A DNA stretch of 64,000 nt from Alphaproteobacteria bacterium UBA3650. Its GTDB lineage: Bacteria > Pseudomonadota > Alphaproteobacteria > CAAHEQ01 > UBA3637. The position numbers were made by a program, and so were the translations under genes. The notes under the pieces were generated by a model that was not told the DNA's origin, ran no database searches, and saw only the letters and a program-made list of their open reading frames with translations. The stretch covers positions 2,376 through 66,375 of the forward strand of contig DFKH01000083.1 in NCBI GenBank assembly GCA_002373815.1, given 5' to 3'. The stretch's first letter is position 1, and the number at the start of each line of letters is the position of its first letter. Of the stretch, positions 1-8,782 are shown one piece after another.

Positions 1-772
1 TTTTCAGTCAGACATCATTAAGTTAAATGAAGCTGACAAAGGTCGCTTAGGTTCTTCTGTAACAGCATTTTCATTTTTACAAAAATTAAATTATTTGATT
101 AAGGCTGGAATTGAAATAAAATCTTTTTCTTCCATTTTAACAAATGTTAATACCTCATCTACAATGCATCTTCCTACTCCACAATTGATGTTTATAGATC
201 AATTAACTCGCGAACTCGAAAAGAGGCCTGACTTACTAGCATCTGTTGTAGAAGAAGTACAAAAAGTTGATCTTGGAATTTCAAACTTGACTCCCTTCAC
301 AGTAAAGCCAAATAATAATTTACAACCTCAACCAGATTTGAAATTATTACTTGCTGAACATAAAGATGGACATTCTACTGTTCGTTTACCATTATTACAA
401 GAGTCAGCAGGCACAGTTAATTATATTATTCTATTTGCTAAAATTAGAGATATTTTAACAACAGGCGGTATTTTAATTGCAGATGAATTAGAAAATAGTT
501 TACATACAGATTTAGTCGAAAGAATTTTGACTTTATTTATAAGAAAAGAGTCAAATCCTAACAATGCACAGATTGTATTTTCTACTCACAATCCTTGGTT
601 TTTACAATTTTTAAGGAAAACTCAAATTTTTATTGTAGAAAAAGATCATGCGCAAGCTACTGATATGTACAGGTTGGATGAAATAAAAGAAGTCCGCAAT
701 GATGAGAACTACTTTATCAAGTATATCAATGGCGAATATGATGGTAGGCCCAAAATCAAAGAGTATTTATAA
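1..772 (+). CDS. 5'-truncated AAA_21/AAA_15-type ATPase (AbiLi-like), C-terminal part; ORF is open to the window start
   Basis: Frame is open from nt 2. Motif ILIADELENSLH (Walker B/D-loop-like) and QIVFSTHNPWFL (H-loop region) are typical of AAA_21 abortive-infection ATPases. Stop overlaps the next start (ATGA). Confidence 0.6.
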   Translation, partial: FQSDIIKLNEADKGRLGSSVTAFSFLQKLNYLIKAGIEIKSFSSILTNVNTSSTMHLPTPQLMFIDQLTRELEKRPDLLASVVEEVQKVDLGISNLTPFTVKPNNNLQPQPDLKLLLAEHKDGHSTVRLPLLQESAGTVNYIILFAKIRDILTTGGILIADELENSLHTDLVERILTLFIRKESNPNNAQIVFSTHNPWFLQFLRKTQIFIVEKDHAQATDMYRLDEIKEVRNDENYFIKYINGEYDGRPKIKEYL

Positions 773-1392
773 TGAAGAAACGCTATAGGAAAAAGACATG
801 CTATTATATATATGAAGGAAAGACAGAAGGTTATTTCCTTCATTATTTAGCATCTCTGTTTCCCAATGCTTCTGTAAAAGAAGTTTCTCCTTTCTCTGGT
901 CGAGGAGGAACGGCCGACTCTATTGTTTTAAATGCATTATCTTGTCAATATTATGATAGATTATTTGTTCTTTTGGATGAAGATTTTGAATCTAAAGCTG
1001 CCGAATATCGCATTTCAAATGAGACTCTAAGAAAATTAGAACAACAATGGAATATTGATCCAGGAGCACTCTCTGAAGTTAAATATAGAGACCTCCATAA
1101 ATATAATATAAATCATAGAAAACCTGTTATCATTGTCTCAAATCCTCAAGCAATAGAAGGATTATTATTACAAATTTTAGGTTATTCTAAACAAAAATTA
1201 GAAAATAAAACAACAGATGAGCTTAAAAGCATGATTCAAAACTTTCTCAAATCAATAACAGACACTTATCCTTGTTATACAACCCCTGAGGCGTTATTGC
1301 ATTTATTTAAACAAAAAATGTCATTAGCCATATTACAAGAAAAGCGCAAAATAATTCCAGAACTAGATACACTTTTAACTTTTTTTGAATAA
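772..1392 (+). CDS. RloB-like protein (AbiLii-like partner of the ATPase)
   Basis: N-terminal CYYIYEGKTEGYF resembles the RloB/Toprim-like signature (vCEGekTE..YF). Translationally coupled to the upstream ATPase. The ATPase + RloB pair is the known AbiL architecture. Confidence 0.55.
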   Translation: MKKRYRKKTCYYIYEGKTEGYFLHYLASLFPNASVKEVSPFSGRGGTADSIVLNALSCQYYDRLFVLLDEDFESKAAEYRISNETLRKLEQQWNIDPGALSEVKYRDLHKYNINHRKPVIIVSNPQAIEGLLLQILGYSKQKLENKTTDELKSMIQNFLKSITDTYPCYTTPEALLHLFKQKMSLAILQEKRKIIPELDTLLTFFE

Positions 1393-1417
1393 GCTTGTAA
1401 TTTATTCGAATTAATTT

Positions 1418-1990
1418 TTATATTTTTTTAATTGAAAAGAGTGGCCTTTTTGCCAATCGAAATAATTTTGTATATACGCTTAAATTTTTCTTATTATTAT
1501 CCACATGATGTGACAGCACTGAAAACTCTGAAAAATTTACCCCAAGTTCTACCAATTTTTGCAAACACAAGCTTTGTTTTGTCAGACAAGGCATTTGTCC
1601 AATATGTTGCTTTAATCTGTTCTCTAAATTCTGAGATGATCCAACAAACAATGTTGTAAATTCATGTTTGCTATTCAAATTATTCAAAACATCCTCGTTC
1701 AAGCAAAGCATAGAATCTACACCATAAATCTTTTTCCAAACTTCTCGCAATAAAGGTCTATATTTTAATACAACATCAGTGGACATCATGACCATATAAA
1801 CAACATTTTGATTCATATATCGATTTGGAATAACCACAGGCTCATCTATTTTTTGATCCATATAAAAGCCTTGATATCCTTGCGCGCGTCCTACCGCTTT
1901 GATTTCATCCATTGTTTGTGCTATTGGGTGAATTTGCGTTTGAAAAAATACTGTTGTCATTTCATCCATCGTCATACTAACTCCTTTCAT
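1418..1990 (-). CDS. hypothetical protein (island-encoded, no recognisable domain)
   Basis: 190 aa ORF in a very AT-rich region. Preceded in sense orientation by copy A of the recurring TATAAT-containing motif. Confidence 0.4.
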   Translation of the reverse strand: MKGVSMTMDEMTTVFFQTQIHPIAQTMDEIKAVGRAQGYQGFYMDQKIDEPVVIPNRYMNQNVVYMVMMSTDVVLKYRPLLREVWKKIYGVDSMLCLNEDVLNNLNSKHEFTTLFVGSSQNLENRLKQHIGQMPCLTKQSLCLQKLVELGVNFSEFSVLSHHVDNNKKNLSVYTKLFRLAKRPLFSIKKI

Positions 1991-2030
1991 TTAACTCAAC
2001 GAATCGCAGTCTAGCACAATTCAAAACTTT

Positions 2031-2060
2031 TGTGTCTTTTATAAAATTATAGGCGTGAGG
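2031..2060 (-). promoter_or_regulatory. Repeat copy A: TGTGTCTTTTATAAAATTATAGGCGTGAGG (reads CCTCACGCCTATAATTTTATAAAAGACACA on the minus strand; contains TATAAT and TATAAA)
   Basis: 25-nt exact match to 7855-7879. Shares the TTATAAAAGACAC core with copies at 5065-5090 and 6764-6784. Lies 28-70 nt upstream of the minus-strand ORF start at 1990. Confidence 0.45.
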
Positions 2061-2073
2061 ATAGTCTAAATCT

Positions 2074-2709
2074 TTAACTTATTTTTGGCAATCTCTTATC
2101 CTTAAAGTGTTTTTCTACCAATTTTTTGATTTCTTCATCTGGCAAGGACTCTATAAAACTTTTATAAAACCAGTTGCCAGATGGATGACCAAATATACAC
2201 ACATTTACCTTTTCAGGCATGCCTTTCTCTAATTCTTGGTAAAAATAAGAAAATTTTTCAAAATCTTTTCCTAATAGCCACAATTTAATCGATGAATTTT
2301 TTCTTAAGAGATTTACTATAAATTCAGCCATAATTTCTTGAGATTCTTTCTCTTTATCTAACTTGACTGTCCTAGCAGTGGACACAAAACTTTTATTCCA
2401 AAAAATAATCTCATGTTTGCAGGCAAGCTTTGTTAAAAAATCTTTTATATGTTGTGTTCGTCCACAAAAATATTCCTGTTTCTTTAATTCAGTATTCCCA
2501 GGATTATCACCAACAATAATATATTTGATATTTGCAATATTATCAATTTGTTTGGATAAATTTTCTAAAAATGGATTTGCATCTTCTCTTTTCTCATCTT
2601 GTGGATTAGGATTAGGCACCACATTTTCTTCTTGGCTATTATTCATCCAATCCAAAATTTTGTCTTTCAAATCTTCTACTAATGGGTGTAATGTCATATT
2701 TTTCTCCAA
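2074..2709 (-). CDS. uracil-DNA glycosylase superfamily-like protein (divergent family-4-like motifs)
   Basis: GDNPGNTE...EYFCGRTQ resembles UDG motif A (GEAPG..E..G.PFvG). CIFGHPSGNWF resembles motif B (HPSP). Divergently arranged with an XRE regulator. Confidence 0.45.
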   Translation of the reverse strand: MEKNMTLHPLVEDLKDKILDWMNNSQEENVVPNPNPQDEKREDANPFLENLSKQIDNIANIKYIIVGDNPGNTELKKQEYFCGRTQHIKDFLTKLACKHEIIFWNKSFVSTARTVKLDKEKESQEIMAEFIVNLLRKNSSIKLWLLGKDFEKFSYFYQELEKGMPEKVNVCIFGHPSGNWFYKSFIESLPDEEIKKLVEKHFKDKRLPKIS

Positions 2710-2865
2710 TTAAGTAAATTTCAAGCGAATTAAACTGCATTTTTTGCCACAAGTCAAGAATTACATTGCTTATTTTATTACAAAATCAGAATTCTAAAGG
2801 ATGTTTTATACGAAACAAATGACATATATTTTTATGCAACAGTTAATATATTTCAGGAAAACAAG

Positions 2866-3237
2866 ATGAAATTACAAATTGGACAAACTATCAAAGCAAT
2901 GCGCAAACAGCGTAAAATGAGTCAAGAGCAATTGGCCGAAGCGACACAATGTAGTTGTAAAACAATCAGTAATATTGAAAATGGTCACATTCCAGAGCTG
3001 AAACAAGTAGTCAATATTTGTGATGTTTTGAAAATTAGTATGGATGATCTGTTTAATTTACACTATAAACCATCTAATGATACAGAATCATCTGATGGAT
3101 ATTTTACAAATAGAGTACATTCGGATACAGCTTTAACTACAGAACAAATTCAAGATTTGGAAACTATCACTCAAAAATTGCCAACTTTAACAGCAGATCA
3201 ACTGAAAGCACTCCGCTTACTCATCAATTTATGGTGA
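2866..3237 (+). CDS. XRE-family helix-turn-helix transcriptional regulator
   Basis: N-terminal QEQLAEATQCSCKTISNIENG is a classic HTH_3 motif. 123 aa. Confidence 0.8.
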   Translation: MKLQIGQTIKAMRKQRKMSQEQLAEATQCSCKTISNIENGHIPELKQVVNICDVLKISMDDLFNLHYKPSNDTESSDGYFTNRVHSDTALTTEQIQDLETITQKLPTLTADQLKALRLLINLW

Positions 3238-3687
3238 GTTTATATTAAAAAATATAATATTAAAAAAACGATATATATCTATGGGGACATTGCCAAGGTG
3301 TCTTTCATTTTGGCAAATCTCTAATCTCAGATGTGGACTTTATAAGGCTGATTCAGTTTGAATCGGCAATTTGAGTTAGTATTCAGTTAAAAATTATCCC
3401 ATATTTTAATTTTATAAATGAGAAGTAAAAAACGAATCGGCATTAAAGGGAAAAAAGTGGATCAAAAATTGAAAATTTTACCCCCAGAATGGGCAAAATG
3501 GGGGTAAATAAAATTATAATAAAAATTATATATATCACAAAAACAGCATAAATTCTTTTATTATCATATAGTTATACAAAAACATCATTTTATTTTTATA
3601 TAAATTGACATTATATATTAATAAAGTACAACTATGCCATCAAAACACATGGTGTGTTTTGAATTAACTGTCAGGAAGGAGAAAAAA

Positions 3688-4191
3688 ATGACAGAAACTA
3701 ATATGGTTTTGAATGTTGTACCATCAAACAATTTCACCTCAAATGTATCCAATGGATTACCATCCGATGTTCAACAATTAATGGATATCTTAAATCGATC
3801 TTACTCTGGAGATTGGCGCAAATCAAAGGAAAAAACTCGAGTTTTAAACAGTATTTGGGTAAAATTGTTTAAAGGCGAACAAGAGAAACTATCCGTAACG
3901 GTTAATCAATACGCAAATATGCTTCCATTTTCAATTGAGGCAAATTTGAAAAATGTGGCTTTGTTTTTTGAACAATTACAAATGGGGGATCGCATTGCGC
4001 CTTATCTCTATGCGCGTATCTGTGAGGAACTGAATCTGAGTAGAGCAAGCAAATTGATGCCCAAAGAAAAGTTGTTCCAACTTTACCTAGATAAAGTTGT
4101 GATTAAAATTCTGAAAAAATTGTTAGAGTATTACATTTCAGAATTGAACTTCAAACAACGCATACACGGAAGCGAACTTGGGTACAATTAA
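3688..4191 (+). CDS. hypothetical protein
   Basis: ATG at 3688 is preceded by GGAAGGAG RBS. The ORF track start at 3634 is probably an extension. No domain recognised. Confidence 0.4.
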   Translation: MTETNMVLNVVPSNNFTSNVSNGLPSDVQQLMDILNRSYSGDWRKSKEKTRVLNSIWVKLFKGEQEKLSVTVNQYANMLPFSIEANLKNVALFFEQLQMGDRIAPYLYARICEELNLSRASKLMPKEKLFQLYLDKVVIKILKKLLEYYISELNFKQRIHGSELGYN

Positions 4192-5018
4192 TACCCAGCA
4201 GTGACGCAATGGATTGAGCCACCATATTTTGCAATTGTGGTGGCATTCAATCCAACAACAGGCTTTGAAGTATGGCTCTGAATAATTTTCAGAGCTACCT
4301 CATCTGTTGACAAATTGTAGGTTGGCACGATGACAACTTTGCTGGTCTGTAGGAAATTGACATAGATACCATTGGCACTATACCATCCATAGGTTGTTTC
4401 ATCAGAAGGATGATAAGGTAGAGAAATCAATTTTATCTGTGGACATTGTTTTTGAATCAACTTATGTACTTTTTGTAAATATTCAGAATTGGGGGCATTA
4501 ATACATAAAGTGTTATCATCTAAAAATTGAACAATACCATCAGCATGTGCTGTGCGCTCATAAGGTTCTGGAGGCAACCAAACCATTTTTTGAATATCAA
4601 ATACTTCATGTAAAATAAGATTCATTTGATCTTCAGAAAGTTTGTTGAGCTCTAATGGTTTGCGTGTGGCAATACCTATGCCAGAACTATTGGTCACCAG
4701 ATTACCACCATCAAATCGCAAAGGTAATGGCACAGCAATTTTATCAAAAAAGGCGAGACACTCTTTTTGAACTTTAGCACTTTTATCAAAGTGTTGATAT
4801 GGCGGTTGATAAGTCAAAGGGATGTATCCTCTGTCTGTAAAAAATGGAGCAAAATCACGAATCCAAATGTCAGATACAGCTAATGAAATAATGGTATGTC
4901 CATACTGTTTGAGCATACTGGACAACTGATCATAAAATTGGCTATACCCAATATATTGGTGCTCAATTTTGGTGGATGGTTTGACTAAAAAAATAGTATT
5001 TGGGTTGTTGATAAACAT
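4188..5018 (-). CDS. agmatine deiminase / Porphyromonas-type peptidylarginine deiminase family protein (short form)
   Basis: C-terminal GGSIHCVTAG matches the catalytic Cys motif of the amidinotransferase-fold PAD_porph/agmatine deiminase family (GG.IHC.TQ). Also has IWIRDFAP. 276 aa is shorter than typical AguA. Confidence 0.55.
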   Translation of the reverse strand: MFINNPNTIFLVKPSTKIEHQYIGYSQFYDQLSSMLKQYGHTIISLAVSDIWIRDFAPFFTDRGYIPLTYQPPYQHFDKSAKVQKECLAFFDKIAVPLPLRFDGGNLVTNSSGIGIATRKPLELNKLSEDQMNLILHEVFDIQKMVWLPPEPYERTAHADGIVQFLDDNTLCINAPNSEYLQKVHKLIQKQCPQIKLISLPYHPSDETTYGWYSANGIYVNFLQTSKVVIVPTYNLSTDEVALKIIQSHTSKPVVGLNATTIAKYGGSIHCVTAGY

Positions 5019-5064
5019 GGTACTCCTTTTTTCTAACTGGACACTATTTTAGCACAAAAAGAAG

Positions 5065-5090
5065 TCTTTGTGTCTTTTATAAGAAATAGG
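5065..5090 (-). promoter_or_regulatory. Repeat copy C: TCTTTGTGTCTTTTATAAGAAATAGG
   Basis: Shares the GTGTCTTTTATAA core with copy A. Its reverse complement is identical over 21 nt to 6764-6784. Lies 47-72 nt upstream of the deiminase-like gene start (5018). Confidence 0.4.
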
Positions 5091-5215
5091 AATTTTTAAC
5101 CTATCTTATTGTAATACAAAGAAAAATTAAAAAAGTTATCCTGCGGTTGTATATAAAAAATATAAATAAAAAAAATATGATAAATACAAACACAACACTA
5201 AAAAAAGGATAATTT

Positions 5216-6271
5216 ATGATTGAAACATTGAAGAGTAAAAAAACAGGCTTACCAAGATATCGAGCAAGAATTAGGGTAAAAAATGTCATAGATCAGTCTA
5301 AGACATTTAAGTACTATGATGATGCAAGTGCTTGGTACCACAAAATGATGGCTGACATTGAAAATTTTTCTAAATGTAATGGTTATGGTGCTAGTCGTGC
5401 CACTTTAGCAGAATGTGTGGATAAGTATTTAGCAGAAAACTATATCAAACCATCTGAGGCTTATGTTCTAAAATGGTGGAAACAACGTTTGGGCAACAAA
5501 AGATTGAGTGCTATTACACCAAATGATTTGTTGACTCATCGCTTAGAGTTATTGCAAACTGAGTACAAAATTGGACATGTATTTAAAATGAGGCAACCAG
5601 CCACAATCAACAAATACATTATTATTTTAAGTGGACTGATGACAACTGCCTGCAAAGAGTGGCAGATTATTTCAAGCAATCCTTGTCAACAAATCAAAAA
5701 ATTAAAGGAACCAAAAGGCAGAACACGCTATTTAAGTCATGATGAAATTCAAATTTTATTAAAGGCATGTGCTGAATCTAAAATGACTTATTTGTACCCA
5801 ATTGTTGTTTTGGCCTTGAGTACAGGAGCAAGACGCTCTGAAATTGTTAATTTAAAATGGCGGAACGTGTTATTGGATGAACATAGGCTTGTCTTTGAAC
5901 AAACAAAAAATGGGGACACGCGCAGTGTGCCTTTATGCGATAAAGCATTGGAAATTTTAACTCAACTTAAAAATGAACATCCACATACACAAGATTTTGA
6001 GCTGGTATTTCAAGGAAAAATAAAGGGACAACCAGTAGATTTTAAAAAGGCATGGCATACCGCGTTATCTGCTGCAGGCATTCAAAATTTTAGATTTCAC
6101 GATTTAAGACATACAGCAGCAACACATTTGTTACGCACTGGAATTGGCTTGATTCCACTTTCAGAAATTTTAGGTCATCACACCATGGATATGGTAAAAC
6201 GCTATGCGCATGTGATGACTGATTACAAAGAAACCTATGTTGCGCAAATGAATCAAAGTATTTTTCAATAA
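5216..6271 (+). CDS. int: tyrosine-type site-specific integrase (phage integrase family)
   Basis: C-terminal HDLRHTAATHLLRTG...LGHHTMDMVKRYAHV carries the R..H..R..Y catalytic box. Located next to a tRNA gene. Confidence 0.9.
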   Translation: MIETLKSKKTGLPRYRARIRVKNVIDQSKTFKYYDDASAWYHKMMADIENFSKCNGYGASRATLAECVDKYLAENYIKPSEAYVLKWWKQRLGNKRLSAITPNDLLTHRLELLQTEYKIGHVFKMRQPATINKYIIILSGLMTTACKEWQIISSNPCQQIKKLKEPKGRTRYLSHDEIQILLKACAESKMTYLYPIVVLALSTGARRSEIVNLKWRNVLLDEHRLVFEQTKNGDTRSVPLCDKALEILTQLKNEHPHTQDFELVFQGKIKGQPVDFKKAWHTALSAAGIQNFRFHDLRHTAATHLLRTGIGLIPLSEILGHHTMDMVKRYAHVMTDYKETYVAQMNQSIFQ

Positions 6272-6280
6272 GGAGGCAAC

Positions 6281-6739
6281 ATGAAAGAATATGACAAGAA
6301 AGTACGCGCAGAAATGCAAAAGTGGATGTCTGTGCAAGAAGCAAATTACAACATAGGGATTACCGTTGTCTTTAATAAGGATAATATTACAGAACAAGAG
6401 GCTTGGAGATACCTCAAAAATGCTTTTGGATATTATTATCGCAAGACACTTGGAAAAAAATGGTACTTAAAAAAGGACAAACAGTATGCGTTCATTGGTT
6501 GCAAAGAAATGGGCAAATATGGCGTCAATTTGCATTATCATCTTATGTTGGCTTTGGTACCTTATTCTTTTTGTGCCTTTATAAAAATGAATCGGCTCTT
6601 AAATAAGGGGTTGCGTAAATATATTTTGTCTGGCCATGTATTTTGTTGGCCTTTAATGGAAAAAGGATGGGGAGCTTACTTATCAAAAGAGGTTAAGCCG
6701 AACACAATCAGCCTTTTTGCACAAAAAGATTTGTTTTAA
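6281..6739 (+). CDS. small HUH-endonuclease-like (Rep-like) protein
   Basis: Three HUH motifs in canonical order: motif 1-like GITVVF, motif 2 LHYHLML (H-u-H-u-u-u), motif 3-like YLSKE (Y..K). Lies directly downstream of the integrase. Confidence 0.4.
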   Translation: MKEYDKKVRAEMQKWMSVQEANYNIGITVVFNKDNITEQEAWRYLKNAFGYYYRKTLGKKWYLKKDKQYAFIGCKEMGKYGVNLHYHLMLALVPYSFCAFIKMNRLLNKGLRKYILSGHVFCWPLMEKGWGAYLSKEVKPNTISLFAQKDLF

Positions 6740-6763
6740 ATCAATAAGTTATTATTTTATACT

Positions 6764-6784
6764 CCTATTTCTTATAAAAGACAC
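6764..6784 (+). promoter_or_regulatory. Repeat copy D: CCTATTTCTTATAAAAGACAC (inverted relative to copies A/C/B, sense relative to the downstream + strand gene)
   Basis: 21-nt exact reverse-complement match to 5067-5087. Lies 52 nt upstream of the 6836 start. Confidence 0.4.
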
Positions 6785-6835
6785 TTTTGTTTTGGAAAAT
6801 GCTACAATGCGATTCGTAAAAGAAAGGAGCAAATT

Positions 6836-7687
6836 ATGGAATTATTAAAAGATATGTGTCAACGCATGCAAAATGAATTGAAAGGCGCAAAAGTAACAGA
6901 TTTAAAAAATCAGCAAGAAACAATCGCAACAGGTTATCCTAATTTGGATGAGGTTCTAGGTGGTGGCTTACCAGTTGGGAAATTGATTGTTCTTTCTCAC
7001 CACAGAAAAGAACGAATTTACCAATCATACTTTTTTAAGCAGATTATTTGTTTAATTTTAAATCGTTTTCACAAAGAAAACTCAGGCAACAAAAAGCAAA
7101 ACAACCTTGCCTATTTTAGTTATTTACACCCTGAATTTTTTGCACTTGAGTTACTTAAAATTAAAGGAAAGGATAATTGGTTCACTGGATTGACAGAGGC
7201 AACCAACCAATCACAGATAAACTATCCAATTTATCTGCATCAACTTGATAAGACAGAGAATCTACCTGACATTATGGAGCAAACTGTTCACAAATTAGGT
7301 TGTTCCATTGTTTGTTTAGATATGGCTGATATTTGGGTAACACACAATGGCAAAAGTATTCTGGACACTTTAATTCAACTACAAGAACTTGCAAGACAAC
7401 TCAATATTTGTATTTTTGTGTCATTATATAAAGAAGAACACGACTTAAACCACGAGCAAGATATCGCAGATATTGTGTTATCATTAGATGATTTTTGTGC
7501 TCTGCATAGCGACTTAGATGATTATCCAGTCTTTTCCGTGACAGTTTATAACAATATTCGACATAAATGGTATGATCAAAGGTTATGGGCTGAAAACTGC
7601 TATTTTCAAATAAATGACAAATATATTCTACCTTGCCCCCAGCAGTATTATGATAAATTGTTGGAAAAATATATTGATGATGAGTAA
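6836..7687 (+). CDS. DnaB-helicase C-terminal-domain-like (RecA-fold) protein lacking a Walker A motif
   Basis: TGYPNLDEVLGGGLPVGKLIVL resembles the DnaB/RadA TG.p.LD...gGl..g.l.ii segment, but GxxxxGK[ST] is absent. The later LIQLQELARQLNICIFVSLYKEEHDLNHEQDIADIVLSLD resembles the DnaB H4 region. Confidence 0.45.
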   Translation: MELLKDMCQRMQNELKGAKVTDLKNQQETIATGYPNLDEVLGGGLPVGKLIVLSHHRKERIYQSYFFKQIICLILNRFHKENSGNKKQNNLAYFSYLHPEFFALELLKIKGKDNWFTGLTEATNQSQINYPIYLHQLDKTENLPDIMEQTVHKLGCSIVCLDMADIWVTHNGKSILDTLIQLQELARQLNICIFVSLYKEEHDLNHEQDIADIVLSLDDFCALHSDLDDYPVFSVTVYNNIRHKWYDQRLWAENCYFQINDKYILPCPQQYYDKLLEKYIDDE

Positions 7688-7703
7688 GCGGAGCCAATAA
7701 AAA

Positions 7704-7779
<76 letters not shown>

Positions 7780-7851
7780 AACAGAGCTATTATGCCATAA
7801 ATACAAAGAAAAATCAAGGTGTTTTTAAGTTACCGTTTTTTACTGGATTCA

Positions 7852-7881
7852 ACTGTCTTTTATAAAATTATAGGCGTGAAG
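7852..7881 (-). promoter_or_regulatory. Repeat copy B: CTGTCTTTTATAAAATTATAGGCGTGAAGG (putative tRNA-Thr promoter region; TATAAT on the minus strand)
   Basis: 25-nt exact match to 2034-2058. Lies 73-102 nt upstream of the tRNA 5' end. Confidence 0.45.
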
Positions 7882-8055
7882 GTAAAAATAAAGGACATTT
7901 TGAGGACCATTTTTATAAAGTTTTATTAAAAGAATAAGCCTTTCAAATCAAACAATTAAGAACAAATTATGAGTACTTTTCAAAAGACTTGACTTTATCC
8001 ATCAAATCCTATAAACTGGCTTCATTGTTGAGGTGTCAAGAGATGTGAGCAACGC

Positions 8056-8101
8056 ATTCGTAATCAGTAGGTCGTGTGTTCGAGTCACATTCTCGGCACC
8101 A
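8056..8101 (+). repeat. Inverted copy of the tRNA-Thr 3' half (46 nt identical including CCA; weaker similarity extends ~10 nt further 5')
   Basis: ATTCGTAATCAGTAGGTCGTGTGTTCGAGTCACATTCTCGGCACCA is identical to the 3' 46 nt of the tRNA-Thr, which is encoded on the opposite strand 280 bp away. Confidence 0.75.
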
Positions 8102-8116
8102 TTTTTTGGGGGTAGT

Positions 8117-8782
8117 ATGCATTCATATGTTCTCAGTTTTTCTTCTGAACTGTATCCATTGACATTAGAAGAAGTGGCTGCTTTACCAGATGCAACAATT
8201 CCTTTTACTGCAAAGGAAGAAGAAGTTATTATTTTATTAGGCGGCAATACCCTTATCAAAGAAGATTGTTTATTAGCTGGACGTTCAAAAATTAAACAAG
8301 CTATTCAGAAAAAAAACAAAACAGTTTCTGTGCGTATTGCTTTTCCTGTTCCAGCGCATATCGGGGCATTATTTGCCTTAATCAAAAAAGTGCGTTATCG
8401 TTGGAAAACAAATGGGACATGTGTTTATCATCTTGACCCCCATTTTTTACGAGATCATGGTTTGGAACGTTTTAAACGGACGGCAGACAATGCATATCAA
8501 TTTTCCAATCATCGTTGGAAAAAAAGCCCTGCCCAGCAACAGGAGCGATATCACAAATTGTTGGAAAATATGTCTCATGGCTATGACGATTCTTTTCCTA
8601 TGCGTGTTATGCTATGTCGTACAAACGGCTCAAAAGATTCTTTAGATGATGGTCATCATCGTTTAGGCATTTGCATTGACAACCATATTCCTCTTGTCGC
8701 GATTCGTTTTTGCTATGCCTCCTCATGGCAAGCTGTACGTCAGATTTTTTCGTTTTCCAAACGCTATTATACAGATAAATAA
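8117..8782 (+). CDS. ParB/sulfiredoxin-like nuclease-domain protein (putative)
   Basis: DGHHRLGICIDNHIPLVAIRF contains the DGHHR-type motif of ParB-like nuclease domains. Start placed at the ATG after the tRNA fragment; the ORF track's 8033 start runs through the fragment. Confidence 0.35.
   Translation: MHSYVLSFSSELYPLTLEEVAALPDATIPFTAKEEEVIILLGGNTLIKEDCLLAGRSKIKQAIQKKNKTVSVRIAFPVPAHIGALFALIKKVRYRWKTNGTCVYHLDPHFLRDHGLERFKRTADNAYQFSNHRWKKSPAQQQERYHKLLENMSHGYDDSFPMRVMLCRTNGSKDSLDDGHHRLGICIDNHIPLVAIRFCYASSWQAVRQIFSFSKRYYTDK

Follow-up and report, generated by a model that had tools for sequence, protein, structure and literature searches.

We found that the window analysed here, a stretch of 64,000 nucleotides from Alphaproteobacteria bacterium UBA3650 (contig DFKH01000083.1, positions 2,376 to 66,375), contains a small mobile island seated in the gene for a threonine tRNA of an uncultured alphaproteobacterium from the gut, and that this island carries a tyrosine integrase, a very small HUH endonuclease of 152 amino acids (mini-Rep) and a helicase-like orphan protein of 283 amino acids. 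We prefer to see it as an integrative defence island of about 8.7 kb, produced by one tyrosine-integrase insertion that divided the resident tRNA-Thr(CGU) gene at its anticodon loop. The best explanation, in which we place moderate confidence, is that integrase and mini-Rep form the mobility core of this tRNA-Thr defence island, the mini-Rep supplying a putative rolling-circle or single-strand function, and that the 283-aa protein is an accessory or cargo of this lineage. In this AT-rich window, the two open reading frames (ORFs) to which a sequence-only reading had drawn attention (6281-6739 and 6836-7687, both on the + strand) are present and stand directly after the integrase gene (5216-6271).

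Judged from its motifs and a predicted fold, the 152-aa protein is a real standalone HUH endonuclease of the Rep class, from a rare family that has no name. Homologues were sought with a word-indexed search of 5.8 billion proteins, which returned two near-identical proteins, and with an exhaustive phmmer search of 1.84 billion cluster representatives, which returned 11 matches; with three further members from a profile search, the family is tiny. Two apparent homologues, P0005 (4650 aa) and P0010 (440 aa), were discarded as spurious, being repeat proteins with summed weak matches. A profile scan of genome contigs with an alignment of the closer subset of mini-Reps gave no matches, and neither the 152-aa nor the 283-aa protein had significant relatives in viral_contigs/IMG/VR, among the INPHARED phages or among the PLSDB plasmids.

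The homologues are 19-45% identical to the 152-aa query in an alignment of 14 sequences, all of which retain G58, E76, N83, H85, H87, Y133 and K136. In an alignment of 11 sequences, T28, F31 and N32 of motif I (GITVVFN) reach 90% conservation or more. The most distant members have Ser for Thr. The conserved residues represent Rep motif I, the HUH motif, the YxxK catalytic motif and a candidate third metal ligand; metal is probably bound through H85, H87 and E76. HUH motifs 1-3, which had been read from the single sequence, are kept in homologues as distant as these. The size of the family members, 146-226 aa, is conserved throughout.

The AlphaFold2 model of the 152-aa protein (predicted local distance difference test (pLDDT) 84.3, predicted template modelling score (pTM) 0.79) has a beta-alpha-beta-beta-alpha-beta arrangement, with H85-Y-H87 on a predicted strand (residues 84-90) and Tyr133 on a predicted helix (residues 130-135). 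Foldseek against the PDB placed at the top the nuclease domains of NS1 from minute virus of mice and B19, SIRV1 ORF119, the Rep proteins of circoviruses, nanoviruses and geminiviruses, and Rep of adeno-associated virus, each match being individually weak (E 9e-4 to 0.1). In BFVD we detected 88 matches at E<=1e-3 (TMq 0.45-0.64, individually modest scores), those with names including microvirus replication initiators, ORF2/G2P-domain proteins, a gene A protein and a parvovirus NS protein. Searches of PDB sequences, with the single sequence and with a profile, returned nothing significant for the 152-aa or the 283-aa protein. The sequence and fold traits that mark a Rep-class HUH enzyme were found, namely the HUH motif, a downstream YxxK on a helix, motif I and the alpha/beta fold, and the description of a minimal HUH Rep-like protein that lacks a helicase domain stands.

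The sole Pfam match of the 152-aa protein is PF23343 (REP_ORF2-G2P; E=2.2e-4, 21.9 bits), at a score below the Pfam gathering threshold, so that we regard it as a distant relative of this family and not as a member. Nine of 11 family members match the same profile weakly (E<0.1), the best at 1.1e-6. As the nearest family and structures are initiators of single-stranded DNA (ssDNA) phages with 250-500 aa, the integrase and rep genes might be what is left of a decayed temperate ssDNA prophage of microvirus or inovirus type, with the 152-aa Rep as a truncated, functionless relic. We consider this highly improbable, given that the size range is kept across the family, that dN/dS is 0.10, that neither capsid nor morphogenesis genes were found in any mini-Rep locus and that the phage collections gave no matches.

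Everything that characterises a genomic island integrated in a tRNA gene was found here: an integrase, insertion into a tRNA, direct repeats, empty sites in relatives and a deviant composition (GC content 0.30-0.36 in the island and 0.38-0.44 in the flanks). The lpxL-like neighbour of the island led to three Alphaproteobacteria metagenome-assembled genomes (MAGs) from gut samples with 74-84% identity. In all three (L013-L015), an intact tRNA-Thr(CGU) adjoins the homologue of the native ORF that flanks the island, and no sequence homologous to window positions 1-7698 was detected in them. At the right junction, where the relatives have the whole tRNA, the window keeps GAGCAACGCATTCGTAA and the 3' half of the tRNA. 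For the left junction, outside the window, the evidence comes from the ends of two short Logan contigs from independent read sets (L025 and L026), which are 100% identical to window positions 1-7728 and add 654 nt on the left side. At their start is the tRNA 5' half up to the anticodon loop (...GAGCAACTGATTCGTAA), ending in ...CTGATTCGTAA, after which island DNA starts with the AbiLi promoter and the full AbiLi gene of 402 aa. The island is thus bounded by 17-bp attachment (att) repeats with 15 of 17 matching positions and, since they are in direct orientation, recombination between them would rebuild an intact tRNA. The predicted attP junction joins GAGATGTGAGCAACGCATTCGTAA to GGAATGGCAAATC, and the predicted restored attB joins the tRNA 5' half to TCAGTAGG...CACCATTTTTTGGG. 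With its integrase, att repeats, tRNA target and the empty sites in relatives, the locus bears out the proposal that both genes belong to an integrative element.

The homology of the region around the island-borne tRNA-Thr to the relatives' tRNA locus stops at 7826/7827, which places a complete tRNA-Thr inside the island that would replace the split resident gene. Three tRNA-Thr-derived segments are therefore found at this locus: the 5' half at the left end (L025 nt 1-30), a complete inverted copy inside and the 3' half at the right end. The internal copy (7699-7758) and positions 8047-8106 form a 60-nt inverted repeat of 97% identity, 288 nt apart, that could in principle be inverted by Int or RecA. 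We considered from this repeat that the island might be inverted and incompetent for excision, and set this aside in favour of one canonical insertion by an island with a tRNA copy of its own, because the tRNA 5' half in L025 and L026 is in direct orientation with 8047-8063.

For the 283-aa protein, the best reading is an SF4/RecA-like fold of the DnaB/T7-gp4/KaiC type in which Walker A has been destroyed; this assignment is supported by sequence comparison and modelling but not proven. Residues 22-58 (TGYPNLDEVLGGGLPVGKLIVL) match the pre-Walker-A segment of RecA-type profiles, with PAXNEB/Elp4 at 2e-7 and weak matches to KaiC, the DnaB-like PHROG 19 (0.047 across 30 residues), UvsX, ImuA and FlaH. 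With hhalign, residues 29-53 fall on Escherichia coli DnaB 206-230, just before DnaB ARPSMGKT, and residues 149-197 (LGCSIVCLDMADIW...LNICIFVSL) fall on T7 gp4 411-464, from Walker B to motif 3 (P=0.005). Smith-Waterman comparison gave z=3.3 with the gp4 helicase domain; the DnaB C-terminal domain, at z=0.8, showed no significant similarity. The AlphaFold2 model is poor (pLDDT 43.6, pTM 0.48); all of its 50 best PDB matches, 38 of them at E<=1e-3, are RecA-type ring ATPases or recombinases (T7 gp4, Twinkle, DnaB, RadA/Sms, KaiC, archaeal RadA and RAD51 paralogues). In the Foldseek comparisons, neither this protein nor the 152-aa protein fell outside the fold, RecA or HUH, that had been claimed for it.

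The loss of Walker A can be read straight from the sequence. At the position of GxxxxGK[ST], after the strand LIVL, the 283-aa protein has SHHRKERIYQ, with no glycine at all, and the P-loop-less stretch is kept as LTHHRKERIYQ in an 84%-identical homologue (L005), in agreement with the earlier claim that the P-loop is missing; binding of ATP by way of a P-loop is thereby precluded. Only about 28 residues precede the core motif, leaving no N-terminal helical (primase-binding) domain of DnaB, and a Pfam scan gave no match to DnaB, DnaB_C or AAA_25. Since it has no P-loop, no N-terminal domain and no match to the DnaB_C profile, the protein is not a member of the DnaB family; the description as a DnaB-like RecA fold without a P-loop is nonetheless supported by the SF4/RecA-type signature and the fold matches. 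Its sole relative in the database of 5.8 billion proteins is a 98%-identical protein. The 283-aa protein possibly interacts with ring helicases.

Both genes are functional as judged by purifying selection, with dN/dS of 0.10 for each against L005 (dS about 0.7) and 0.15-0.16 against L001. The strong Shine-Dalgarno sequence of the 152-aa ORF (AAGGAGG; TAAGGAGGCAACATG) overlaps the stop codon of the integrase gene, and a separate extended -10 promoter-like sequence (TGCTACAAT) and ribosome-binding site lie upstream of the 283-aa ORF. Between the two, an intergenic region of about 100 nt (6737-6838, compared with L005 2146-2247) is 97% identical, against about 85-86% in the flanking coding sequence, which points to a constrained cis element, a promoter or operator and possibly more. 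The constraint on this spacer is much stronger than that on synonymous sites. The 152-aa and 283-aa ORFs are in the same frame, separated by one TAA, and the 96-nt spacer has no further stop. A split gene or read-through was considered and dismissed: L001 and L005 keep the stop, and the 283-aa gene is preceded by a promoter and a ribosome-binding site of its own. With the stop conserved in relatives, the shared frame is probably coincidental.

In distant relatives, the pairing of integrase and mini-Rep recurs, for the most part in defence islands linked to a tRNA. L016 has an integrase 72% and a Rep (P0004) 45% identical to those of the window, separated by the same 9-nt gap. In L006, a tRNA-Asn is followed by an integrase (36% identical), two ORFs and the Rep, and then by T5orf172, a KAP NTPase, a serine recombinase and a reverse transcriptase. 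L007-L009 encode an integrase, an ORF, HTH_17 and the Rep, followed by AAA_15/AAA_21 and OLD-type genes; L012 encodes HTH_17, the Rep, SIR2 with HerA and an integrase; and in L019 an integrase lies 1.4 kb from the Rep. In L021 (368-4093), the Rep homologue P0008 is 1.5 kb from, and divergent to, the gene for a family-A DNA polymerase of 584 aa, and this locus, which continues with a helix-turn-helix (HTH) gene of the HI1420-downstream type and DUF3768, could represent a separate replicative element that shares the Rep family. A homologue of the 283-aa protein was absent from all other mini-Rep loci (L006, L007, L012 and L016-L021). As the integrase recurs and the 283-aa protein does not, the conserved unit is integrase plus mini-Rep in small defence-type islands: several islands pair the two at a tRNA gene, and the pseudo-helicase is specific to the lineage of the window.

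This distribution bears on the reading of Rep and the Walker-A-less protein as one replication module, put forward from the sequence alone. As in the replication modules of satellites or PICIs (phage-inducible chromosomal islands), the pseudo-helicase would then recruit host DnaB, or some other ring helicase, to the nicked origin in the manner of an adaptor or loader. The genes are adjacent, on the same strand and both under purifying selection, the promoter region between them is unusually conserved, the 283-aa fold resembles hexamer-forming SF4 helicases and the Rep has no helicase of its own. However, the 283-aa protein is missing from every other mini-Rep locus and has its own promoter, only near-identical copies of it occur among the 5.8 billion proteins, satellite hallmark genes were not found and the viral collections gave no matches. 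We therefore regard such a module as rather improbable. Being under selection yet lineage-restricted, the 283-aa gene is better placed outside the conserved module, as an accessory or cargo gene.

As cargo, the 283-aa protein could be an ATPase-dead SF4 mimic for defence or counter-defence, co-assembling with or titrating the ring helicase or primase-helicase of an invader in a dominant-negative way. The island and its distant relatives are defence islands (AbiL, KAP NTPase, OLD-type, SIR2-HerA and reverse transcriptase), the gene sits at the end of the island as cargo does and has one of the four island-specific boxes described below, the model comes closest to the structures of phage T7 gp4 and Twinkle, and an orphan is here under purifying selection. 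Nevertheless, PADLOC gave no match for the protein, the fold comes from a low-confidence model and we know of no experimental precedent for a decoy of SF4 helicases, so that we hold this role to be improbable.

The likeness to a phage satellite or phage-inducible chromosomal island (PICI) that had been suggested did not find support. The hallmarks of satellites (terS, capsid-size redirection, interference and primase-helicase) were absent from the island ORFs in comparisons with Pfam and PADLOC, and with PHROGs for six ORFs. Without hijacking or packaging genes, and with no relatives in the viral and plasmid collections, the island is not demonstrably a phage satellite. Overall, the suggested PICI-like module of Rep and helicase recruitment is supported in part only.

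We infer the following course for the favoured explanation, that of an integrase and mini-Rep mobility core, with the nicking steps modelled on established HUH biology. The core would consist of the integrase and the co-transcribed standalone 152-aa HUH endonuclease, with Tyr133 in YxxK as its single catalytic tyrosine. After Int-driven excision, for which the island may be competent, the mini-Rep would nick one strand of the circle at a specific site, presented single-stranded or in a hairpin, and would become covalently attached through Tyr133, while the free 3'-OH would prime rolling-circle synthesis by a host polymerase. Since the mini-Rep has no helicase of its own, a host helicase would be needed to unwind the DNA. 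The excised element would in this way be kept or amplified, or single-stranded DNA would be supplied for transfer.

There is a serious rival, in which the mini-HUH protein is a relaxase, as in integrative and mobilizable elements (IMEs), and the island is an iMOB-type element that is nicked at an oriT and whose single strand moves through the conjugation apparatus of a helper plasmid or of an integrative and conjugative element (ICE). Rep-related HUH proteins of the MOBT family are relaxases in ICEs and IMEs (PMC6499999); ICEs and IMEs are described as typically encoding an HUH endonuclease (PMC9345347), and elements with integrase, relaxase and oriT alone are a recognised class of IMEs (PMC11389934). 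It is also in line with this that the island has no replication helicase, polymerase or packaging genes. Against it, both profile and structure place the protein nearest to ssDNA-phage replication initiators (PF23343, microvirus Rep) and not to MOB families, no oriT was recognised in the island, which also has no coupling protein or conjugation gene, and one mini-Rep homologue lies beside a DNA polymerase gene. The polymerase neighbour in L021 and the affinity of the family to ssDNA phages favour replication over conjugative relaxation, and we judge the relaxase role to be unlikely, though it deserves to be taken seriously.

A more general proposal is that small tRNA-integrating defence islands of Proteobacteria use an unnamed family of standalone HUH nickases of about 150 aa, with the integrase as an obligatory partner, as a minimal engine that excises and then amplifies by rolling circle, joined here by an ATPase-dead SF4 mimic that captures host DnaB or poisons the ring helicases of invaders. 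In this full form, we consider it quite improbable.

We searched the island for an origin. A tandem-repeat search gave nothing of note, and Rfam detected no RNA family besides tRNA. The AT-rich region 3238-3687 had been named as a place to look for iterons, and none there was significant: region 3238-3700 has weak repeats only, and GAATSGGCA, present three times, is not significant (15 of 100 shuffles reach it). Part of the AT-rich region falls in a swappable cargo cassette. A hairpin with a 10-bp stem at 3477-3508 has z=-2.5. Two copies of GAATCGGCA (3360 and 3434) were also noted, the loop of this hairpin contains GAATGGGCA (3487), and ACGAATCG is also present in the leaders of boxes A and C. 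Positions 3347-3508 are a candidate protein-binding or nick region, statistically not compelling.

Several observations weigh against the explanation that we favour. The 152-aa protein scores under the PF23343 gathering score (21.9 vs 27.8 bits), and the 283-aa fold was assigned from a model with pLDDT 43.6. Neither a nick site nor a hairpin origin nor iterons were identified in the island, and shuffled sequences fold as well as the conserved rep-283 intergenic region does (z about 0). The att interpretation hangs on the 30 nt that end two de Bruijn contigs, and because the left junction is known from contig ends alone, more complex inversion histories of the island are possible. No circular or attP/attB junction was observed, so that present-day mobility is unproven. 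Finally, close relatives (84-100% identity) all have the same integrated arrangement.

The remainder of the island encodes cargo and regulatory sequences (Table 1). At its left end is a complete AbiLi/AbiLii (AbiL) anti-phage system (window 2-1392; L025 218-2046), of which the AbiLi gene begins left of the window, with the full 402 aa at L025 218-1426. The next ORF is weakly GIY-YIG-like, both its matches (Pfam and NCBIfam) being under cut-off. Further right, the cassette at 3389-4186 is swapped in L027 for an unrelated ORF of 297 aa (1303-2199): L027 matches window 2066-3388 and 4187-4886 and not the part between, and the two islands are otherwise 94-96% identical. The site between the HTH_3 and PAD_porph-like genes looks like a hotspot of cargo exchange. 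The PAD_porph-like enzyme is well below the AguA equivalog cut-offs and is an unusual cargo for a defence island.

The 64 kb contain four copies of a 13-nt box, GTGTCTTTTATAA, against 0.19 expected, and every one of them is within the island. Three of the four lie about 35-55 nt upstream of extended -10 promoters of outward-reading island genes, and these promoter-like regions are paralogous; the fourth copy is upstream of the island-borne tRNA-Thr. The box probably serves an island regulator, for instance the HTH_3 protein, as its operator. A similar box is found 3' of the Rep gene in the distant contig L016. We also considered whether the integrase and rep genes, flanked by 22-bp perfect inverted repeats, are a transposon. 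This was rejected: because the four copies of the box precede island genes, the arms are better read as two outward-facing paralogous promoters.

Table 1. Features of the island and of its junctions. Coordinates are those of the window unless a contig is named.
Feature	Position	Strand	Evidence or remark
attL core	L025 nt 14-30, 624-654 nt left of window start		direct repeat of 8047-8063
AbiLi-type AAA ATPase, C-terminal part, defence cargo	2..772	+	PADLOC AbiLi E=1.1e-41
AbiLii-like partner, 206 aa	772..1392	+	PADLOC AbiLii E=4.5e-5
Weakly GIY-YIG-like ORF, behind box A	1418..1990	-	GIY_YIG_2 0.0027; NCBIfam group I intron endonuclease 1.4e-4
Box A, island-specific promoter-like region with GTGTCTTTTATAA	1999..2063	-	
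UDG-superfamily-like ORF	2074..2709	-	Pfam UDG E=1.4e-6
HTH_3 (Cro/CI-type) regulator, candidate island repressor	2866..3237	+	Pfam HTH_3 E=6.3e-13; PHROG repressor families
Variable cargo cassette with ORF185 (3634-4191)	3389..4186	+	absent from L027
PAD_porph / agmatine-deiminase-like gene, behind box B	4188..5018	-	Pfam PAD_porph E=1e-30
Box B	5070..5091	+	22-nt perfect inverted repeat of 6763-6784; arms flank int-rep
Copies of box GTGTCTTTTATAA	2032-2044, 5070-5082, 6772-6784 (-), 7853-7865		extended regions 1999-2063, 5050-5091, 6763-6817
Tyrosine integrase	5216..6271	+	Pfam Phage_integrase 1.3e-32; PHROG 1 at 4e-67
Putative standalone mini HUH (Rep-class, single Tyr) endonuclease, 152 aa	6281..6739	+	
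Box C and extended -10 promoter (TGCTACAAT) of the 283-aa gene	6763..6817	+	
Orphan SF4/RecA-fold-like protein without Walker A (pseudo-helicase), 283 aa	6836..7687	+	
Complete tRNA-Thr(CGU) in island	7704..7779	-	ARAGORN and Rfam; 47 nt native-like upstream (7780-7826)
Right-end island segment (P arm)	7828..8046		without homology to relatives' tRNA flanks; box D at 7853-7865
attR core GAGCAACGCATTCGTAA	8047..8063	+	direct repeat of attL core, 15/17
Resident tRNA-Thr, native 3' half	8064..8101	+	native genes come next
Native ORF	8033-8782		homologue beside intact tRNA in L013

For many small genomic and defence islands, no way to replicate or transfer can be recognised, although they encode an integrase. 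If our explanation is true, a rare mini HUH nickase repeatedly found alongside the integrase would provide them with a minimal function for replication or single-strand transfer. A new Rep subfamily would be defined at the same time, whose size of about 150 aa is useful for HUH-tag applications as well. The P-loop-less SF4-like protein would exemplify a pseudo-helicase under selection on a mobile element and, if it acts on the ring helicases of host or phage, would represent a new kind of accessory or defence activity. At present, the locus is an interesting yet unsurprising variant of known integrative elements.

Among known systems, the initiators of ssDNA phages (PF23343; microvirus/gokushovirus VP4, plectrovirus ORF2 and inovirus gpII type) are closest to the mini-Rep, with motif I, HUH and YxxK in the same order; they are also the best structural matches, and their profile is the one weakly matched across the family (9/11). 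In contrast to them, the mini-Rep is half their size or less (152 vs 250-500 aa), has a single Tyr, scores below the gathering threshold and is encoded in chromosomal integrase islands and not in phage genomes. The nuclease domains of SIRV1 ORF119 and of the circovirus, nanovirus and parvovirus Rep/NS1 proteins share with it a compact HUH domain of 100-170 aa and a helix Tyr facing the HUH strand, but identity to these minimal nucleases is 10-16%, TM-scores are 0.3-0.5 and the genetic context is another; the Reps of eukaryotic viruses are, unlike the mini-Rep, fused to SF3 helicases. Phage satellites (PICI, P4-like and PICMI) and small tRNA defence islands are likewise small integrase islands at a tRNA gene, and the islands of the mini-Rep relatives share with them the order of integrase, AlpA-like HTH_17, replication gene and defence cargo. 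The present island differs from phage satellites in having an HUH nickase in place of a primase-helicase; packaging, capsid-redirecting or helper-sensing genes were not found in it, and a helper is not known. The 283-aa protein shares TGYxxLDxxLGGGLxxG with SF4 helicases (DnaB C-terminal domain, T7 gp4 and Twinkle, with RSF1010 RepA as a minimal form) and with the ATPase-dead Elp4/PAXNEB, ImuA and Rad51 paralogues. Its Walker-B-like IVCLDM and the following helix and strand align to gp4, and its size is about one RecA domain, as in SF4 proteins, whereas its Walker A is destroyed and a DnaB N-terminal domain is absent.

A parallel for the island as a whole is provided by ICEBs1 NicK, Tn916 Orf20 and the MOBT relaxases, where integrase and HUH nickase are likewise found in one integrative element. 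In ICEBs1, the excised element replicates by rolling circle through the action of the nickase, with the help of a host helicase and an accessory factor that the element encodes. Nickases of the ICEBs1/Tn916 type are Rep_trans proteins of Firmicutes that work within conjugation modules, and the island differs from these elements in Rep family, host phylum and size (8.7 kb, no transfer genes). The locus would work like known integrative elements that combine an integrase with an HUH nickase, be it the nickases of ICEs and IMEs or the Reps of ssDNA phages, and is distinct from them in the family and size of its Rep, its host phylum, the minimal size of the element, its island-borne replacement tRNA and its pseudo-helicase.

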